From the NCBI GenBank assembly GCA_016783505.1, contig JADHWK010000021.1, forward strand, positions 1 through 34,881: a DNA stretch of 34,881 nucleotides. The letters run 5' to 3'. The translations under genes and the position numbers were made by a program. The stretch's first letter is position 1. Each line of letters begins with the position of its first letter. The notes beneath the pieces are model-generated. The model did no database searches and was not told the DNA's origin. It saw only the letters and a program-made list of their open reading frames with translations. This document shows, one piece after another, positions 1,129-18,325 of this stretch. Source of the stretch: Candidatus Zhuqueibacterota bacterium. GTDB taxonomy: Bacteria; BS750m-G25.

Positions 1129-1204
1129 TGGTGAGGGTAGGGAGAATCGAACTCCCGACCAACGGCTTAAAAGGCCGCTGCTCTACCAGCTGAGCTATAC
1201 CCTC
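1129..1204 (-). tRNA. tRNA-Lys (anticodon UUU)
   Basis: GAGGGTATAGCTCAGCTGGTAGAGCAGCGGCCTTTTAAGCCGTTGGTCGGGAGTTCGATTCTCCCTACCCTCACCA: 76 nt, full cloverleaf, TTCGA T-loop, encoded CCA. Confidence 0.97.
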
Positions 1205-6656: not shown

Positions 6657-7070
6657 TTATCCAAAAGCCTTCTTGAAATCTTCGGGAACCGGGACGGGTT
6701 TGTTGTTCCCGTCCAGAAAGACCGCCGTGATCTCGGCGTCTAAAATTTCCAGGTTGCTCTTTGGGTTTCTTATCTTCTGTATCAAGGTAATGCTGCTGTT
6801 TCCAAACCTTTTGACATAGCCGCTGATCTCCAACACATCCCCCATAAAGGCCGGAGCTTTGAAATCCAGACGGGCAGACGCAACAACGAAGTAAATGCCC
6901 CTCTTGAGAAAGTATTCAAACGAAAGCCCCACCTGTTCGAGGTACTCCACCCTGGCCTGTTCCAGGTAGTTCATGTAGACGGCGTTGTTCACGTGACCGT
7001 AGAGGTCCACCTCATAAGATCGGACTTTTATGGTAGTAGTGAATCGTTTTGCCATTCGTTTATTCTTCAT
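6657..7070 (-). CDS. Acyl-CoA thioesterase, YbgC/4HBT hot-dog fold
   Basis: VRSYEVDLYGHVNNAVYMNYLEQAR signature; 137 aa. Confidence 0.9.
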   Translation of the reverse strand: MKNKRMAKRFTTTIKVRSYEVDLYGHVNNAVYMNYLEQARVEYLEQVGLSFEYFLKRGIYFVVASARLDFKAPAFMGDVLEISGYVKRFGNSSITLIQKIRNPKSNLEILDAEITAVFLDGNNKPVPVPEDFKKAFG

Positions 7071-8178: not shown

Positions 8179-8214
8179 TCCCCCATATTAAGGGGGGATT
8201 TAGGGGGGTGTTAA
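8179..8214. repeat. Left palindromic arm flanking the DUF559 gene
   Basis: TCCCCC-ATATTAA-GGGGGGA-TTTA-GGGGGGTGTTAA. Confidence 0.7.
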
Positions 8215-8609
8215 AACCTATTAAACGTTATTAAGACGTTATCCCTACTTTCCTCCCTCTCAATCCAATCCCTAATAAATGCCATTACACCTTCCATGTT
8301 GTTTTTTATATCAGAAACATAAAACCCTAAAAATTTTATACCTTGTTTTTCGATTTCCCTCTGTCGTATCTTATCCCCTTTGAATTTATTTTCATGACTG
8401 ATGCTATCAATTTCAATCGCCAAACGAAGTCTGCTGCAATAGAAATCTACAATGTAATTCCCAATAGGCTTTTGCCGGGTGAATTTATAGACTTTTACCT
8501 GTCTTCCTTTGATTTGCATCCAAATTAGAACTTCAGACAAGGTGCCTTCCCTACGCAATCTTCTTGAAAGTGCTTTCAGTTTTGGATTGTAATAAGTTTT
8601 CTTTAGCAT
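8211..8609 (-). CDS. DUF559 / Vsr-like endonuclease-domain protein
   Basis: RRLRR..T.SE..IW, KFTRQKPIGNYIVDFYC and LAIEID..H motifs; AT-rich. Confidence 0.85.
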   Translation of the reverse strand: MLKKTYYNPKLKALSRRLRREGTLSEVLIWMQIKGRQVKVYKFTRQKPIGNYIVDFYCSRLRLAIEIDSISHENKFKGDKIRQREIEKQGIKFLGFYVSDIKNNMEGVMAFIRDWIEREESRDNVLITFNRF

Positions 8610-8778: not shown

Positions 8779-10329
8779 TTAAAAATCTTCATGTAATTCT
8801 TTAACAACATCAATGACGGTTCCATCACGGAATTCTATCAGAGCGACGATGCGATCGCCGAAGGTAGGTTTGGCCGGGGTGCCCGTCATGTCATGGGCTA
8901 TTTTTTTAAGCTTTTCGATGGGCATGATGGGCAGGGTGCTCCCTTTGAGCCTATCCAGCAGGTCCTCACGGCGGGGGTTAATGGCGATGCCCCTTTCGGT
9001 GACGATAACATCTATCATCTCCCCGGGGGCGGTCACCGTGGTCACCTCGTCCACGACAATGGGCAGCCGGCCCCGAATCAGGGGAACCGTGATCATGGTA
9101 AGCTGGGCGTCGGCGGCGTCGGTGAAGCCCCCGATGCCGTGCAGGAGCCAGCCGTCGGAGTGGGTGTTTACGTTGACGTTAAAATCAAGATCAATCTCCG
9201 TTCCCCCGAGGACGGACACTTTCACTAGGGAAGCAAAGCACCCCTTAGTATGGTAATTATAGGACACGAATGGATTGGTCTCAATGTGGAAGGGGTTATC
9301 CCTTAGGGAGCGAACACCGGTCAGGTCGAAGGCCTGACCGTCGAGGATGTACTTCACCCGCCCCTCGTTCAACAGGTTAACTAACACCTCGGTTGATCCC
9401 CCCCGGGCGAATGCGGCGGTGACTCCCTTCCGCCCCATGATCTCGGCTAAGTATTTGATGAAGGCCAACGATACCCCCCCGGCTCCGGCCTGGAACGAGA
9501 AATCCGGTTCATCAAGAAGCCCCGAGTCTTCCACGAATCGGGCGGCGTACTGGGCGATCAGAAGCCGGGTGGGGCTGCGGGTGATGCGAGTGGTCCCCGA
9601 GACAATCTGGGCCGGGTCGCCCAGAGAGTCAATCTCGACCACATAATCAATGTTTCCCCCTTCGATGCTCCAGGGGAAGCAGGGGAAGGGGACTAAGTGG
9701 TCGGTGACCACCACCACCCTATCGGCATATAAAGAGTCTGCCAGGGCGAACCCTAATGGACCGCAGGCCGAAGGGCCGTTTACTCCGTTGGCATTCCCGT
9801 GGCGATCGGAACAGGGGGCGGCGATAAAGGCCACATCAATGGGAAGGTCCCCGTCCTGGATGGCCCGGTAGCGACCTCCATGGGAGCGCAAAATGGCCGT
9901 TCCCCTCATCTTTCCCAATGAGCAGGCTTTTCCCACCGGTCCGTTCATGGAACCCTCGATATGGTGGATCACACCGCTTTCGATATGCCGGACCAAGGGT
10001 TCGTGGCAGGGGAACAGGGCCGATGGGGCCGGGACCAGATCCTTCAGCCCCCGCTGGGCCAGCTTGTCCATCACCAGATTGACCAGCCGATCCCCGTTCC
10101 GCAGGTGATGATGAAACGAAATGGTCATACCGTCCTTGATGTCACAGGCATTGATGGCCTCGTCCAGAGAGGTTAACAGCTTGTCCTGGTATTGGCTGGC
10201 GGCCCGAATCGGAGGGCCGATCTTTCTTCCACCGCCCTCATCGGAGTTTGCTCCACCAAAGGGCTTCAGCTTCCTGCCGTCAATCTCCTCGGGGATCAAC
10301 CTGCCGACGGCGTTTTCGATTATTTTCAT
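8779..10329 (-). CDS. citF: Citrate lyase alpha subunit / citrate CoA-transferase family
   Basis: DGMTISFHHHLRNGD, RSHGGR, FQAGAGG, EIDLDFNVNV, TERGIAINP and EFRDGTVIDVV motifs; 516 aa. Confidence 0.92.
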   Translation of the reverse strand: MKIIENAVGRLIPEEIDGRKLKPFGGANSDEGGGRKIGPPIRAASQYQDKLLTSLDEAINACDIKDGMTISFHHHLRNGDRLVNLVMDKLAQRGLKDLVPAPSALFPCHEPLVRHIESGVIHHIEGSMNGPVGKACSLGKMRGTAILRSHGGRYRAIQDGDLPIDVAFIAAPCSDRHGNANGVNGPSACGPLGFALADSLYADRVVVVTDHLVPFPCFPWSIEGGNIDYVVEIDSLGDPAQIVSGTTRITRSPTRLLIAQYAARFVEDSGLLDEPDFSFQAGAGGVSLAFIKYLAEIMGRKGVTAAFARGGSTEVLVNLLNEGRVKYILDGQAFDLTGVRSLRDNPFHIETNPFVSYNYHTKGCFASLVKVSVLGGTEIDLDFNVNVNTHSDGWLLHGIGGFTDAADAQLTMITVPLIRGRLPIVVDEVTTVTAPGEMIDVIVTERGIAINPRREDLLDRLKGSTLPIMPIEKLKKIAHDMTGTPAKPTFGDRIVALIEFRDGTVIDVVKELHEDF

Positions 10330-10397
10330 AGCTCTGTTATCTCTTTAATTTTTGTAAATGTAAAAGGTGCGTTTAATCTTTAATCATTTACTCCTCA

Positions 10398-10461
10398 TGG
10401 AATACGAGTAAAACATAATTTACTAACATTGGAATGTGAGTAAAATATATTTTACTAACAA
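10398..10461. repeat. Tandem 32-bp repeat with palindromic core AGTAAA-N6-TTTACT (operator-like)
   Basis: TGGAATACGAGTAAAACATAATTTACTAACAT followed directly by TGGAATGTGAGTAAAATATATTTTACTAACAA. Confidence 0.7.
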
Positions 10462-10697
10462 TCCAAGAAAACCCTCATTCAAGAAAAAAGACGGGCACTA
10501 GCCGTCTATATGAGACAACTTCTTAAAAATTGGTCAGACGCCTGACTGATTTACACTTTGCATTTTACATTTTGCAATTTGAAGCTTCGCCAAATTTATG
10601 TTGTTTCCCCTCTCGTCGGGTTGCTTGCCCGGTCCGCCGTGCCCGGCTAGGGTAGGAGGCTACGCTCCCAGGGGGGCGAAGCTTCGCTAGATGAATT

Positions 10698-11885
10698 CTA
10701 TTCTGATTCTAACAATCCCATTCTTTTTGCCAATTCCAGTGTCCTTCGGGCCCGGGCAGCCACCGGGGCATCTATCATCTTCCGGCCCAACGAGGCGACT
10801 CCAGATCCCTTTTCTTCCGCTTCCCTTAAGGCGGCCAATACCTTCTGGGCGTGCTCAATTTGCTTCGGGGTGGGAGCAAAAGCCCGGTGAACCGGCTCAA
10901 TCTGACCGGGGTGGATCAAGCCCTTGCCGTCGAAGCCCAGGGAGATGGCCTCTTTAGTGCTGGCGATCAGGCCCTCGGTGTCGGCCACATCCGAGAAAAC
11001 GGTGTCAATGGCCTGGACGCCGGCGGCCCGGGCAGCCAACACCAATTGACAGCGGGCCAGGTAGCTTTCCCGGCCCTCCTTGGTCCGGTCGGTCCCGATG
11101 TCGGCGGTGAAGTCCTCAGCCCCGAAGCAGATGGCCACCACCCTGGGGCTGGCGGAGGCGATCTCAAAGGCGAGCAGTACCCCCTTAGCCGACTCAATGA
11201 TGGGCATCAAGAAGGTCTCCTTTTTCTGATCGAACCTCTTCTCAATACTGGCGATCCGTTCTTCAACAGCCTGTACATCTTCCTTTCCCTCGCACTTGGG
11301 GATGAGGATGGTGTCCGGTCCGGCGGGGATGATCTGCTCTAAATCATCGGCCCCAAACGGGGTCCTAAACGAATTAATCCTCACCATACGCTCGGAGCTT
11401 CCGAAATCCACCGCCCGGAGGGAGTTACGAACTAAAATCCGGGCGTCGGGCTTGTCGGCTGGGGCCACCGAGTCCTCCAGGTCCAGGATGATGGCGTCAG
11501 CACCGAACAGCCCGGCATTCAGCATCAGGTCGGGGTTGTTGCCGGGGATGTAGAGCCTTGATCTCCTTAACCGATCCCTGGTCACTTGAGGCTGGGGCCC
11601 CTTTGCCGGGGGCAGAACCCCGGGACCCTCGATGGGTAAAAGCTCGCGGGCGGCGTCCTCGACCCGGGCCATAATGACGTGGTCCAAGGCCCCCCGATCA
11701 TTCGCCTTTACGTGTACATGTTGGATACCCAGTTTTTGAAGGGTGTTCTGAATGGTCGCCTTTATTTGTTCCCCAAACAGTGTCTGCACAGAGCTGGTCA
11801 GGTCAATCCCAATAACTCCGGTCTCCCGTTTTTCCAGTTCGATGAGAATATCGCCCTTTTCGGCCCGTCCGGATGTTACCGTCAT
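10698..11885 (-). CDS. citE: Fusion of a citrate lyase ACP-like (CitD) domain and citryl-CoA lyase beta subunit (CitE)
   Basis: aa 1-85 match the CitD pattern (SSVQTLFGEQI, DRGALDHVIMARV). aa ~105-395 match CitE (RRSRLYIPGNNP, ILDLEDSV, IIESAKG, GAEDF, GKGLIHP, MIDAP). Confidence 0.9.
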   Translation of the reverse strand: MTVTSGRAEKGDILIELEKRETGVIGIDLTSSVQTLFGEQIKATIQNTLQKLGIQHVHVKANDRGALDHVIMARVEDAARELLPIEGPGVLPPAKGPQPQVTRDRLRRSRLYIPGNNPDLMLNAGLFGADAIILDLEDSVAPADKPDARILVRNSLRAVDFGSSERMVRINSFRTPFGADDLEQIIPAGPDTILIPKCEGKEDVQAVEERIASIEKRFDQKKETFLMPIIESAKGVLLAFEIASASPRVVAICFGAEDFTADIGTDRTKEGRESYLARCQLVLAARAAGVQAIDTVFSDVADTEGLIASTKEAISLGFDGKGLIHPGQIEPVHRAFAPTPKQIEHAQKVLAALREAEEKGSGVASLGRKMIDAPVAARARRTLELAKRMGLLESE

Positions 11886-15346: not shown

Positions 15347-16432
15347 ATGCTAACTACACTGAAAAAATATCCGGCTATTTTGAAATTCTTCTACCAAAAC
15401 TTATCAGGACCTTTTGAGGAAAAGTTAGATGAATTGCATCCTCTAATGAAAGCAATTATTCATAACTCTCCCTATCTAAAATTTGTGAATAACTTTCTCG
15501 AAAATTTTACTTTTTTGGGAAAAGAATATCACAATAAAATTGAAGAAATTTTAAAACGGCCCATTTCTGACCCTAACGGAAACGCTGGTATTGTAGCCTG
15601 GCATAATATTTTGGCCGAGTTAACGGCCTTATATATTCTATCAAACAAACTGAATCTCAAAGTAACAGGACTTGAAAGAGTTTCACACCGATATTCTGTA
15701 CAAAACAGGGGGAAATGTGATTTTAGGGTCGAAAACAATCATAGAGAAATTTACTTTGATGTAAAGGACAAAAGTAGTGAATTAAAGCAAACACCCCCAC
15801 CCCGTCTTGATAGAAAATTAAAGGAAATAAAAAGCCCCTTTGTGATCAGTCCTCAATTAAGGAATCGTAATTATAAATGTGATAACCTCGATCAAAAAAT
15901 CGAAACCATTAAAAATGGAATTAATCAAAAGAAAAAAGAGGCAGCTCAGCTAAAAAGACCTTTATATGGATTCAGGTTGGACCTGGAAGATTTCGAGGTT
16001 TTTCTCACCCCCAAAAATAAGGACTTGGCAGATAATTATTATGGATCCGATTTTTTTAACCCTGATGATTCAATTGAGGATTCTTCAAATTGGCTATTCG
16101 GCGAAAATAGCAAGGTAAAAGAAAGTGAACCAAAAAAGCCTATGGTTAAAATTGCTGAAGAAAAGGGCGCGGACTACTTGATGTGCTTAATAAATCCATG
16201 GATCGGAAATGGGATTAAGACATTTGATGATTTCATAAAAGGTCTATTCTCTAACAATGTCAAGACGGCCTACATATTAAAACCCACAAGTGAAAAATGT
16301 AAAAGAATAAGAATTTATGAAAGCACCGACATAAGGTTAGGAACAAAAATTTCAGGTATCATAATCTTTTTGTCTAAAGGTCACTTTCGCATTATTAATA
16401 ATTTGAATAGCAAATATGGATTCTATATATAA
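15347..16432 (+). CDS. AT-rich hypothetical protein, possible PD-(D/E)xK nuclease fold
   Basis: 361-aa ORF; ILAEL...KCDFRV-x7-IYFDVK pattern; spot-counted lines 22-38% GC. Confidence 0.6.
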   Translation: MLTTLKKYPAILKFFYQNLSGPFEEKLDELHPLMKAIIHNSPYLKFVNNFLENFTFLGKEYHNKIEEILKRPISDPNGNAGIVAWHNILAELTALYILSNKLNLKVTGLERVSHRYSVQNRGKCDFRVENNHREIYFDVKDKSSELKQTPPPRLDRKLKEIKSPFVISPQLRNRNYKCDNLDQKIETIKNGINQKKKEAAQLKRPLYGFRLDLEDFEVFLTPKNKDLADNYYGSDFFNPDDSIEDSSNWLFGENSKVKESEPKKPMVKIAEEKGADYLMCLINPWIGNGIKTFDDFIKGLFSNNVKTAYILKPTSEKCKRIRIYESTDIRLGTKISGIIIFLSKGHFRIINNLNSKYGFYI

Positions 16433-16696: not shown

Positions 16697-18325
16697 ATGG
16701 TCAAAAAAGACTCTCCAAAATCCTACAACCAATCTGCTAAGTCCGCCTCCCCTAACGAAGGCAACGGAAAACACCGACGCATCCTCTTCGGTATTATCAT
16801 TGCCATTATCGTCGGCACCCTTATGGGGGGTTGGCTTCCGGATCTCGCAGTGAAAACCTCAATTCTTGGCGAGATTTTCCTAAATTCACTCATGATGATC
16901 GTAGTCCCACTCGTTATGTTTTCAATGATCGTTGGGATTACGGGTCTGGGTGATATTCGCAATCTTGGCTCGATTGGGGGGCGTACTATCCTTTATTATA
17001 TGGTGACAACAGGAATTTCGGTTCTCATCGGCATTATCTTGGTCAATATCGTCCAGCCGGGTAAGGGGATTTCCCACGGTGAGGAACACGCAGAATTTAC
17101 TTATCTAATTGGTGGCGTGAACAATCGCACAGTCACGTTAACAAACGGAACCTGGGAAAAGACGCGTTATAACGAGAAGTATTTGTTGATTCTACAGGAT
17201 CAGCAGGTTCAGGGCACCATTGAATCTATTTCCGAGAATTCTGCGACGGTGAAGTTGTGGGAATCACGTCAAGCAGGCGATGTGTTCTATATCCCCGCAG
17301 AGGATGGCACACGCTTGCCGTTTCGTCGTGTTAGGGGACGGCTTGTGTCTGCCGAACCAGAGCTTGTCCCTTCTGGGAAGGGTGTTGAAATCGCCTTACC
17401 CGTTGTCCAGAAATTGCGTGGCAAGAAAGAGAGGGGTATCGGTAACACGCTGAAGGAGGTCTTGGTCGGAGACAAAGCAATCGGAAAAGAGGGAATGATT
17501 CCACGCAACATTTTCAACGCGATGGTGCGTATGGACATCCTCCCATTGATTGTTTTCTCACTTTTGTTGGGTGCGACGCTTTCCGTCCTTGGTGAACGAG
17601 GACGCTCTGCCATTGATGTGATCTCGATTCTAAATGATGCTGTAATGCGACTTGTCCACTGGATTATGGTCGTCGCGCCAATTGGCATTTTTGGATTAAT
17701 CGCAGCGCGTATTGGTCACGCCGGAGGATTTAGCGGTTTTCTGCCGGAACTGCTTGCACTGGGGAAATATTTTTTCACCGTTTTGCTGGGGCTCGCAATG
17801 CATGGTTTCATTGTACTGCCACTCATCCTCCTGCTCATCGGACGACGAAATCCTCGACTGTATGTAATAGGTGTGGGTTCAGCTCTGCTGAACGCTTTCT
17901 CCACAGCGTCGAGCTCTGCCACTCTGCCGTTGACCATGGAGGGCGTCGAGAAGGAAAATGGGATCTCAAATCGGACGGCAAGTTTTGTTCTGCCACTTGG
18001 CGCCACAATTAACATGGACGGTACTGCCCTCTACGAAGCCGTCGCCGCGATGTTCATCGCACAAGTTTATGGAATATCATTAGGGCCGCTGGAACAAATG
18101 GTCATTTTCCTGACGGCGACGTTGGCGGCTATCGGTGCAGCAGGGATTCCCGAAGCGGGACTCGTCACAATGGTAATTGTCCTTAGAGCCGTTGGGTTAC
18201 CGATCGAAGGTATTGGGCTCATCCTAACGATTGATTGGCTCCTGGACCGATTCCGCACGACCGTCAATGTCTGGGGTGATAGTGTCGGCGCAGGTGTTAT
18301 CGAGACACTTGAAATGAAACGATGA
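16697..18325 (+). CDS. Dicarboxylate/amino acid:cation symporter (DAACS, GltP/GltT family) with a large extracellular insertion
   Basis: FSTASSSATLP, LGATINMDGT, IGAAGIP and DWLLDRFRTTVNVWGD motifs; SD AAGGAGG. Confidence 0.93.
   Translation: MVKKDSPKSYNQSAKSASPNEGNGKHRRILFGIIIAIIVGTLMGGWLPDLAVKTSILGEIFLNSLMMIVVPLVMFSMIVGITGLGDIRNLGSIGGRTILYYMVTTGISVLIGIILVNIVQPGKGISHGEEHAEFTYLIGGVNNRTVTLTNGTWEKTRYNEKYLLILQDQQVQGTIESISENSATVKLWESRQAGDVFYIPAEDGTRLPFRRVRGRLVSAEPELVPSGKGVEIALPVVQKLRGKKERGIGNTLKEVLVGDKAIGKEGMIPRNIFNAMVRMDILPLIVFSLLLGATLSVLGERGRSAIDVISILNDAVMRLVHWIMVVAPIGIFGLIAARIGHAGGFSGFLPELLALGKYFFTVLLGLAMHGFIVLPLILLLIGRRNPRLYVIGVGSALLNAFSTASSSATLPLTMEGVEKENGISNRTASFVLPLGATINMDGTALYEAVAAMFIAQVYGISLGPLEQMVIFLTATLAAIGAAGIPEAGLVTMVIVLRAVGLPIEGIGLILTIDWLLDRFRTTVNVWGDSVGAGVIETLEMKR

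Follow-up and report, generated by a model that had tools for sequence, protein, structure and literature searches.

Genes and features at the locus

The window, a stretch of 34,881 nucleotides (contig JADHWK010000021.1, Candidatus Zhuqueibacterota bacterium), carries a citrate-lyase-like system in which a gene for a carrier domain fused to CitE lies beside citF. The features are as follows, with the basis of each in parentheses:

8779..10329, minus strand: citF, 516 aa, citrate lyase alpha subunit / citrate CoA- (ACP-) transferase (Pfam, NCBIfam, BLASTP)
10330..10697, no strand: non-coding spacer between citDE and citF, 368 bp, with short dispersed repeats (ORF scan, repeat search)
10698..11885, minus strand: citD-citE fusion gene, 395 aa, an ACP-like domain, a linker and a citryl-CoA-lyase (CitE) domain (Pfam, NCBIfam, BLASTP)
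11574..11639, minus strand: Pro/Gly-rich linker, aa 83-104 of the fusion, with a conserved P-G-x-L-P motif (column counts, model)
11640..11885, minus strand: CitD/MdcC-like carrier domain, aa 1-82 of the fusion (AlphaFold2 model and fold search)
11856..11858, minus strand: codon AAG, Lys10, aligned to the prosthetic-group Ser14 of E. coli CitD (BLASTP, DNA read, relatives)

The fusion of an ACP domain to CitE, proposed in the initial annotation, is borne out by Pfam, which places ACP (PF06857; aa 2-81, 78.2 bits against a cut-off of 25.1) and HpcH_HpaI (PF03328; aa 108-326, 209 bits, a strong family-level match) in one open reading frame. Assignment of the N-terminal part to the CitD family also holds with the NCBIfam citD profile TIGR01608 (69.0 bits, cut-off 63.5) and with PRK13253 (71.7 bits, cut-off 65). 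An AlphaFold2 model of the carrier domain (mean pLDDT 87.2) has strands at aa 2-5, 13-19, 26-31 and 57-63 and helices at aa 34-51 and 68-82; by TM-score, its top fold match is MdcC (5vit chain C; TMq 0.74, TMt 0.72, rmsd 2.0 Å over 81 columns), the remaining matches having TMq values of 0.60 or less. At the sequence level, the carrier domain has no match in the PDB at E values up to 1. All of the best 120 relatives combine PF06857 with PF03328, and column counts were made on the 117 of these with a length of 390 aa or more. Of the 117, 95 have P88 in the linker, 103 have G89 and 114 have P92, and the pLDDT drops to 70 and then to 49 over the final two blocks of the model.

CitF (PF04223, 505 bits) passes the citF equivalog TIGR01584 over aa 36-513 (558 bits, cut-off 501), is 44% identical to E. 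coli CitF over its full length and matches 2hj0 (E = 1e-134) and 1xr4 (E = 1e-131) in the PDB. The CitE part is 41% identical to E. coli CitE over 295 aa, and its closest PDB sequences are 5vxc (CLYBL, 2e-48) and 5ugr (malyl-CoA lyase, 8e-44). It covers positions 1-287 of the 288 in the citE equivalog TIGR01588 but scores 330 bits against a cut-off of 443, and is thus a CitE-family lyase whose specificity for citrate the profile does not certify.

This shortfall leaves some room for another substrate handled by the same chemistry, such as citramalate, which the initial annotation had entertained, or a different 2-hydroxy-2-carboxymethyl acid; clostridial citramalate lyase has the same three-subunit design as citrate lyase. 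We found no positive evidence for citramalate. The clear pass of CitF and the full-length identity of both subunits to the E. coli enzyme speak for citrate, as does the gene immediately downstream of citF in 3 of 17 related loci (L004, L005 and L009), an ATP-type PEP carboxykinase (PEPCK_ATP), which as a consumer of oxaloacetate points to that product and therefore to citrate. We consider a substrate other than citrate quite unlikely; citrate is the probable substrate, and cleavage would be the direction.

The only conserved neighbor of the fusion gene is citF, found beside it in 14 of 18 loci (the window counted), and the 17 related loci have no conserved accessory gene next to citDE-citF. 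A link to the hot-dog thioesterase gene at 6657..7070, which had been suggested from its position, was dropped: the protein is of the YbgC type, and such a gene accompanies the system in 0 of the 17 related loci. In relatives, citDE and citF abut or overlap, whereas in the window they are separated by the 368-bp spacer, which contains no notable open reading frame, has a terminator-like hairpin at 10507..10489 and includes pieces that recur in the assembly (24 other matches, 81-100% identity). Rfam finds nothing in the citDE-citF region, its sole match being a tRNA at 1132..1204.

A conserved basic residue at the attachment site

Citrate lyase is the textbook case of an enzyme whose dedicated CoA-like cofactor is bound covalently and served by three helper genes: in E. 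coli CitD, Ser14 bears 2'-(5''-phosphoribosyl)-3'-dephospho-CoA, which is made with CitG, attached by CitX and re-acetylated by CitC. In a BLASTP comparison with CitD of E. coli K-12, aa 5-76 of the fusion match aa 9-80 at 35% identity and with no gap, pairing G6 with G10, E9 with E13, K10 with S14, G11 with G15 and D12 with D16. The DNA at the motif reads GAA AAG GGC GAT, and the replacement of Ser14 by Lys, the central claim of the initial annotation, is confirmed at both levels. In a MAFFT alignment, the Lys or Arg of 29 relatives likewise shares a column with the Ser found in three Ser-type CitDs. In the model, Lys10 is located in the loop between strands 1 and 2 (aa 6-12), for which the consensus is G-R-x-x-K-[S/G]-D, with the spacing G-x3-[S/K]-x-D as in canonical CitD. 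The prosthetic-group serine characteristic of the CitD family is thus replaced by Lys10. The following residue is Gly in the window protein (position 11) and Ser (59), Gly (55), Asn (2) or Cys (1) among the 117 full-length relatives, with Asp, Glu, Ala and Gln also seen in Lys-type family representatives; since this position is variable, there is no conserved Ser nearby in the 117. Among the Arg-type representatives, Ser directly follows the basic residue in 28 of 32.

The loop is strictly conserved: G6, K10 and D12 are invariant in the 117 full-length relatives and R7, a second basic residue, is present in 101, while D63, G65, R74 and E76, outside the loop, are each invariant as well. Lys is also found in the split, unfused citD of three loci (L012, L017 and L018). 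Standalone carrier-domain relatives (query aa 1-95) were found by exhaustive search, a word-index search of the shorter proteins having given none. The best 150 CitD-family representatives together with the query have at the Ser14 position Ser (75), Arg (32), Lys (28), Asn (5), Ala (3), Thr (2) or Asp (1), with 5 unaligned. A Ser-type fused protein (P0205) is on record too. Record titles within the set that has the basic residue name Calditrichota, Krumholzibacteria, Zixibacteria, Cloacimonadota, Acidobacteriota and Bipolaricaulota. A FastTree phylogeny built from the carrier domain (146 rows by 78 columns) is unresolved, requiring nine changes between Ser and Lys/Arg, only two of which are forced by supported branches.

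A survey of the window's own phylum returned only its own genome, and we surveyed instead the phylum of genome G004, from which 114 genomes were obtained with a requested completeness of at least 90% (individual values were not displayed). The ACP domain is present in 44 of the 114, one copy in each, in frames of fused length except for two at contig ends; the 30 loci that were read have Lys (21) or Arg (9) at the attachment position, and none has Ser. The lysine is a trait of the family and not a local accident, its presence in 117 of 117 full-length relatives is more than chance, and the carrier domain is being retained under selection together with a conserved loop.

Distribution of the cofactor genes

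Neither citC, citG nor citX was found in the window by open reading frame and Pfam profile searches, in agreement with the initial annotation, or by profile search in the whole assembly, which is 59.9% complete, contains a single CitD-family domain and has no match to the CitC profile TIGR00124. The wider comparison gives the same picture. Each of 18 genomes examined has one ACP domain and no second citD. CitG and CitX were found by profile search in all three Ser-type genomes (L029, L033 and L035) and in the E. coli control, and in 0 of 33 non-Ser genomes (0/18, 0/3 and 0/12 in the three sets, the Arg-type loci having been collected with the single protein P0224 as query). In the phylum of G004, with its 44 carriers, CitG and CitX are found in 0 of 114 genomes, and CitC (TIGR00124) reaches its 262-bit cut-off in none of the 114, the top score being 34.9. 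Matches to PF08218 in 4 of the 18 genomes were rejected as CitC (22-29 bits, partial profile coverage, frames of 172-181 aa); this profile also matches 7 of 14 controls, some of them merely as a weak cross-match, and TIGR00124 agrees with the rejection. By this comparison of gene content, the presence of citG and citX tracks the serine, and loss of the serine goes with loss of both genes, a correlation that the initial annotation had named as a check. Because citG and citX are present in Ser-type genomes and absent from non-Ser ones, its proposal of a version that works with no prosthetic group stands as the best reading.

The same data bear on two other explanations. In one, loss of the serine disabled the enzyme and the system is an inactive relic, or citC, citG and citX are merely missing from incomplete assemblies; the window's assembly is indeed far from complete, and the genomes sampled with the Lys/Arg form include metagenome-assembled ones. 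Yet the reading frames are unbroken and highly conserved (CitF of the window is 70-79% identical to that of nine relatives labeled with different phyla), the 114 genomes of a single phylum include 44 with the system and none with any of the three genes, and the Ser-type metagenome-assembled genomes gave CitG and CitX in 3 of 3 cases in the same scan. We give this explanation almost no weight.

In the other, the domain is a true carrier modified by an unidentified enzyme, on the Lys or Arg, on the neighboring Ser or elsewhere. A non-homologous modification system would escape profile searches, recognition by a modifying enzyme would suit the strict conservation of the loop, and 59 of the 117 Lys-type proteins and 28 of the 32 Arg-type ones have a Ser right after the basic residue that could in principle serve for attachment. 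That Ser is not conserved, however, and is Gly in the window protein; Lys and Arg undergo different modifications; CitG, without which the only known precursor is not made, is missing throughout the 33 and 114 genomes; and no accessory gene is conserved next to the operon in the 17 loci. A different covalent cofactor thus appears very unlikely.

A proposed lyase cycle on free acetyl-CoA

We propose, with a probability of roughly 0.6, that the system is a citrate lyase that has no covalent prosthetic group and cycles free acetyl-CoA, with a CoA-handling loop in the carrier domain. As no CitG, CitX or CitC is encoded, the thioester that CitF and CitE cycle is most likely one of free CoA. CitF would release acetate from acetyl-CoA by moving the CoA onto citrate, and CitE would split the resulting citryl-CoA into oxaloacetate and acetyl-CoA. 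Acetyl-CoA would be regenerated in each round and needed in catalytic amounts only, which would make the ligase dispensable. In work by Dimroth and Eggerer from 1975, isolated alpha and beta subunits were reportedly active on acetyl-CoA and citryl-CoA; together with the missing cofactor machinery, this suggests that the enzyme probably works on free acetyl-CoA. Comparison of CitF between the Lys/Arg type and the Ser type (n = 4) gives one differing column (G331 versus Val), and hence the CitF sequence does not point to adaptation to free CoA.

The role of the carrier domain is where the accounts diverge. The initial annotation regarded it as kept for scaffolding, that is, the enzyme would use free acyl-CoA with no cofactor, the domain would just assemble the alpha/beta complex and Lys10 would have no part in handling CoA. 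Absence of citC, citG and citX fits such an arrangement equally well, and the stretches that match the helices forming the MdcC-MdcA interface, as described in the available part of the malonate decarboxylase study (PMC5534430), are well conserved, including the invariant D63, G65, R74 and E76. It does not explain, however, why the former attachment site has an invariant Lys, why sister lineages exchange this residue solely for Arg or why most relatives have R7 as a second basic residue in the loop. We regard pure scaffolding as unlikely: an invariant Lys, or Arg in sister proteins, implies a probable role for the domain beyond passive scaffolding, and with the other retained family residues it indicates selection on the loop itself.

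In the CoA-handling reading that we favor, the basic tip of the loop would contact one of the phosphates of free CoA, such as the 3'-phosphate, which is missing from the covalent cofactor, and the domain would organize the complex and also keep or pass on the thioester with no covalent bond. The pairing of CitD with CitF is textbook knowledge and resembles that of MdcC with MdcA, which has been solved. For the latter, the available text of PMC5534430 describes Ser25 of MdcC, which lies at the tip of the beta2-beta3 loop and points at the MdcA active site, gives ∼10 Å as the distance from it to the ribose 2'-OH of the modeled cofactor, and reports that MdcD-MdcE binds free CoA. By analogy with this one structure, of a different enzyme, Lys10 may be placed to contact CoA. 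A more specific version, which we offer tentatively and as less likely to be right than wrong, is that the Lys/Arg-type domain is a carrier with no covalent group, in which the basic loop grips the phosphate or phosphates of acetyl- and citryl-CoA and ferries the thioester between CitF and CitE, a non-covalent swinging arm evolved from a covalent one.

A large and phylogenetically broad set of citrate lyases has exchanged the attachment serine for an invariant basic residue and lost the three helpers while keeping the carrier domain, on which selection is strong. If these enzymes use free acetyl-CoA, annotation and metabolic models, with their label "citrate lyase acyl carrier protein," need another rule for the presence of the pathway; the family would also be a natural experiment on replacing a covalent swinging arm and would supply a simple, helper-free two-gene citrate lyase for engineering. 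If the non-covalent carrier is real, many uncultured anaerobic phyla would be able to cleave citrate independently of ATP with no CitG, CitX or CitC, and the reaction could complete an unconventional reverse TCA cycle or supply gluconeogenesis via PEP carboxykinase. The system also bears on the older suggestion, made in the available part of PMC3362086, of an ATP-independent citrate lyase for the reverse TCA cycle in relatives of green sulfur bacteria.

Comparison with known systems

The window system shares with canonical CitDEF (Klebsiella pneumoniae; E. coli b0613-b0618) the three protein families, the D-E-F order and the SSV, DxGALD and AR.E motifs. The canonical enzyme has an unfused CitD with Ser14, in contrast to the CitD-CitE fusion with Lys described above, and E. 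coli has six genes (citCDEFXG) in one cluster, whereas the window's genome and related genomes have no citC, citX or citG; of CitG, CitX and CitC, which belong to the canonical holoenzyme system, none was found. The fusion itself was already noted in 2012 in Ignavibacterium album, a member of the same broad bacterial group, where IALB_1146 (CitF) and IALB_1147 (a CitE-CitD fusion) form a two-gene ATP-independent citrate lyase of like design (Liu et al., 2012; PMC3362086). Its authors proposed a role in citrate fermentation or in an unconventional reverse TCA cycle, and their account, in the part available, makes no mention of the loss of Ser or of citC, citG and citX; our literature search found no report of either loss.

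MdcC of malonate decarboxylase (5vit chain C; available part of PMC5534430) has in common with the carrier domain the PF06857 family, the fold and the attachment loop between the first strands. It differs in carrying its cofactor on Ser25, in depending on MdcB and MdcG and in serving a decarboxylase, where the window system is a lyase. On the CitE side, malyl-CoA lyase, CLYBL and M. tuberculosis CitE use the TIM-barrel HpcH/CitE fold on free acyl-CoA, and Hydrogenobacter citryl-CoA lyase is a further CitE-like lyase that acts on a free CoA thioester. Use of free acyl-CoA thioesters by characterized CitE-like enzymes is also described in the available text of PMC3832036. These free-CoA lyases have neither a CitD domain nor a CitF partner, whereas the window system keeps both.

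Results

The analysis centers on two genes and the spacer between them:

10698..11885 (minus strand): CitD-CitE fusion ORF (citDE), 395 aa, with matches to PF06857 and PF03328
8779..10329 (minus strand): citF, 516 aa, scoring 558 bits with TIGR01584 (cut-off 501)
10330-10697: 368-bp spacer between citDE and citF, with short dispersed repeats

By profile search, residues 1 to ~82 of the fusion belong to the CitD/MdcC carrier family (PF06857, 78 bits; TIGR01608 citD, 69 bits vs a cut-off of 63.5) and residues 108-326 to the HpcH/CitE lyase family (PF03328, 209 bits), with TIGR01588 citE at 330 bits, short of the equivalog cut-off (443). CitD, CitE, and CitF share 35%, 41%, and 44% identity, respectively, with their E. 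coli K-12 counterparts, and CitF of the window is 70-79% identical to that of nine relatives labelled with different phyla; both catalytic subunits are intact and show very strong conservation. In relatives, citDE and citF abut or overlap, unlike in the window, where pieces of the spacer (~25-85 bp) have 24 further matches, 81-100% identical, across the assembly, with a terminator-like hairpin at 10507..10489. The operon appears to be split here by a small REP/MITE-like insertion.

The initial annotation placed a lysine where the prosthetic-group serine should be, and both an ungapped BLASTP alignment and the DNA itself bear this out. Residues 9-80 of E. coli CitD align without gaps to residues 5-76 of the fusion, pairing Gly6 with Gly10, Glu9 with Glu13, Lys10 with Ser14 (the residue to which E. 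coli and Klebsiella attach the cofactor), Gly11 with Gly15, and Asp12 with Asp16. The loop codons read GAA AAG GGC GAT, with Lys10 at 11856..11858 (minus strand). As for other serines, Ser5 sits in a variable column (V54/A50/T6/S5/I2 in 117 relatives), and the conserved pair Ser31-Ser32 matches S35 and S36, which are conserved in E. coli CitD too and are not its attachment site. The attachment serine is gone from this carrier domain.

The lysine extends to a large family. Both domains are present in all of the best 120 relatives listed; after removal of three shorter than 390 aa (two without the N-terminus, the third also with Lys), Gly6, Lys10, and Asp12 are invariant in 117/117 relatives of at least 390 aa, Arg7 is found in 101 of the 117, and position 11 is S in 59, G in 55, N in 2, and C in 1. 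Three related loci (L012, L017, L018) have separate citD and citE genes, with Lys there too. An exhaustive search with residues 1-95 returned 440 cluster representatives at E <= 0.001; at the Ser14 position, the query and the best 150 of the 440 together show 75 S, 32 R, 28 K, 5 N, 3 A, 2 T, and 1 D, with 5 unalignable there. Because these sequences were ordered by similarity to the query, the counts are not a census. Arg-type proteins carry the motif x-V-R-S-D, and many are CitE fusions. One 399-aa CitD-CitE fusion (P0205) keeps the serine, in G-S-T-D-S-N-D, so fusion and loss of the serine are separate events; a search of the genome contigs gave no locus for P0205. The Arg-type proteins form a sister class, mostly CitE-fused, with a near-invariant Ser after the Arg (P0139, P0220, P0224, and others), and the Arg-type loci L026-L028, L034, L036, and L038-L040 come from MAGs labelled Acidobacteriaceae and Cloacimonadota.

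Serine loss goes with loss of the helper genes, which were sought with PF01874 (CitG), PF03802 (CitX), and TIGR00124 (CitC), E. coli being positive in the controls of every search. CitG and CitX are absent from all 18 genomes comprising that of the window and the 17 behind related loci (non-Ser; 17 typed as Lys, and L010 with a truncated domain), from three Arg-type Acidobacteriota MAGs, and from the 12 non-Ser members of a 15-MAG scan (7 Lys-type, 5 Arg-type), in which all three Ser-type genomes (L029, L033, L035) have them; taken together, the eight Arg-type genomes just counted (loci L026-L028, L034, L036, and L038-L040) have neither. The totals are 3/3 Ser-type vs 0/33 non-Ser, for which the hypergeometric probability is 1 in 7140; this is not a proper p-value because the genomes are not phylogenetically independent. 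A second, canonical citD serving these subunits was looked for; the 18 genomes carry a single CitD-family domain apiece, which excludes it there.

Because MAG incompleteness could explain missing helpers, the search was widened to 114 genomes of the phylum of G004 (a related genome labelled Calditrichota), with completeness of at least 90% requested, values not being displayed. The carrier domain occurs in 44 of them, once each, in fused-length frames save for two at contig ends; of the 30 readable loci, 21 are Lys-type and 9 Arg-type, and none is Ser-type. CitG and CitX were each found in 0/114, and CitC in 0/114 above the cut-off (top score 34.9 vs 262 bits). One unpublished genome (G143) is among the 114, the 44 carriers, and the 9 Arg-type loci; leaving it out gives 43/113 carriers and 8 Arg-type loci out of 29 and changes none of the conclusions. 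The machinery to make, attach, and re-acetylate the cofactor is absent.

CitX and CitG share one open frame in two of the Ser-type MAGs (491 aa at G021:C4:123556-124908; 447 aa at G025:C156:87-1361) and appear to be CitXG fusions; in the third (G027:C29:5458-5936), the CitX match contains one or two in-frame TGA codons.

The neighborhood holds one conserved partner, citF, seen at 14 of 18 loci (the window and 17 related); at most of the others a contig edge was reached or the gene was masked by the ORF filter. No candidate modifying enzyme recurs beside citDE-citF at these 18 loci. Directly downstream of citF, three loci carry an ATP-dependent PEP carboxykinase (PF01293):

L004:12711-14786: PEP carboxykinase gene
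L005:12784-14721: PEP carboxykinase gene
L009:2982-4925: PEP carboxykinase gene (locus labelled Krumholzibacteriaceae)

This position fits oxaloacetate as the product and suggests a route from citrate through oxaloacetate to PEP at these loci. The suggested link to a thioesterase of the window falls away, with a counterpart at 0 of the 17 related loci:

6657..7070: YbgC-type hot-dog thioesterase

Elsewhere in the window, a DUF559 (endonuclease-like) gene (8211-8609, minus strand) separates citF from a thioredoxin-TPR lipoprotein gene and is missing at the syntenic loci L003, L006, and L007, where secD/secF directly follow citF. A sodium:dicarboxylate symporter family protein (16697-18325, plus strand) matches PF00375 in two stretches (393 bits), the best of which pairs aa 266-536 with profile positions 120-385 and suggests that the first half of the protein contains a large insertion (~140 aa). 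A 361-aa ORF (15347-16432, plus strand) matches no Pfam family at E <= 0.001. A phylum search around the genome of the window brought up no other genome, whether or not completeness was filtered. This genome seems alone in its phylum among those searched; the best protein relatives are 66% identical and named KSB1 or Calditrichaeota.

Discussion

The initial annotation read this as a citrate-lyase-like system independent of the prosthetic group, with its carrier domain kept as a scaffold. Comparative genomics gives good support to cofactor independence; the "scaffold only" view is doubtful, the basic residue being invariant. Both half-reactions would run on a free thioester, CitF converting acetyl-CoA and citrate to acetate and citryl-CoA, and CitE cleaving citryl-CoA to oxaloacetate and acetyl-CoA. 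Dimroth and Eggerer (1975) reportedly saw isolated classical subunits perform these half-reactions on free thioesters. A free cofactor would need no CitC, because deacetylated CoA exchanges with the pool. Characterized CitE-like enzymes act on a free thioester (PMC3832036).

The carrier domain is not a relic in decay, because it keeps the family-conserved residues and the invariant basic residue. Lys and Arg alternate between lineages within the same phylum, and the loop has a second basic residue where Ser-type proteins read G-T-L-E-S; from these patterns we think that positive charge itself is under selection. By analogy, the basic loop would most plausibly bind a phosphate of free CoA at the transferase or lyase site.

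In databases, these proteins go by "citrate lyase acyl carrier protein" or by "citrate lyase subunit beta". A full-text search, covering few subscription journals, found no paper on serine replacement or citC/G/X absence in such systems. The Ignavibacterium album genome paper (PMC3362086) notes a CitE-CitD fusion adjoining CitF and raises the idea of citrate fermentation or of a reverse TCA cycle of an unconventional kind.

The structural comparison is with malonate decarboxylase, whose MdcA is a CitF homologue. In an AlphaFold2 model of residues 1-95 (alignment of 32 sequences; mean pLDDT 87.2), Lys10 lies in a loop (aa 6-12) between strands 1 and 2. The top PDB match by TM-score is MdcC (5vit chain C; TMq 0.74, rmsd 2.0 Å, 81 columns); EF-G and ribosomal-protein matches rank better by E-value, but with TMq <=0.60. 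As described in the malonate decarboxylase structure paper (PMC5534430), MdcC Ser25, the equivalent of the CitD attachment serine, is at the tip of the corresponding loop, aimed into the MdcA active site; free CoA is bound in MdcD-MdcE, and in the modelled cofactor the ribose 2'-OH lies ~10 Å from Ser25.
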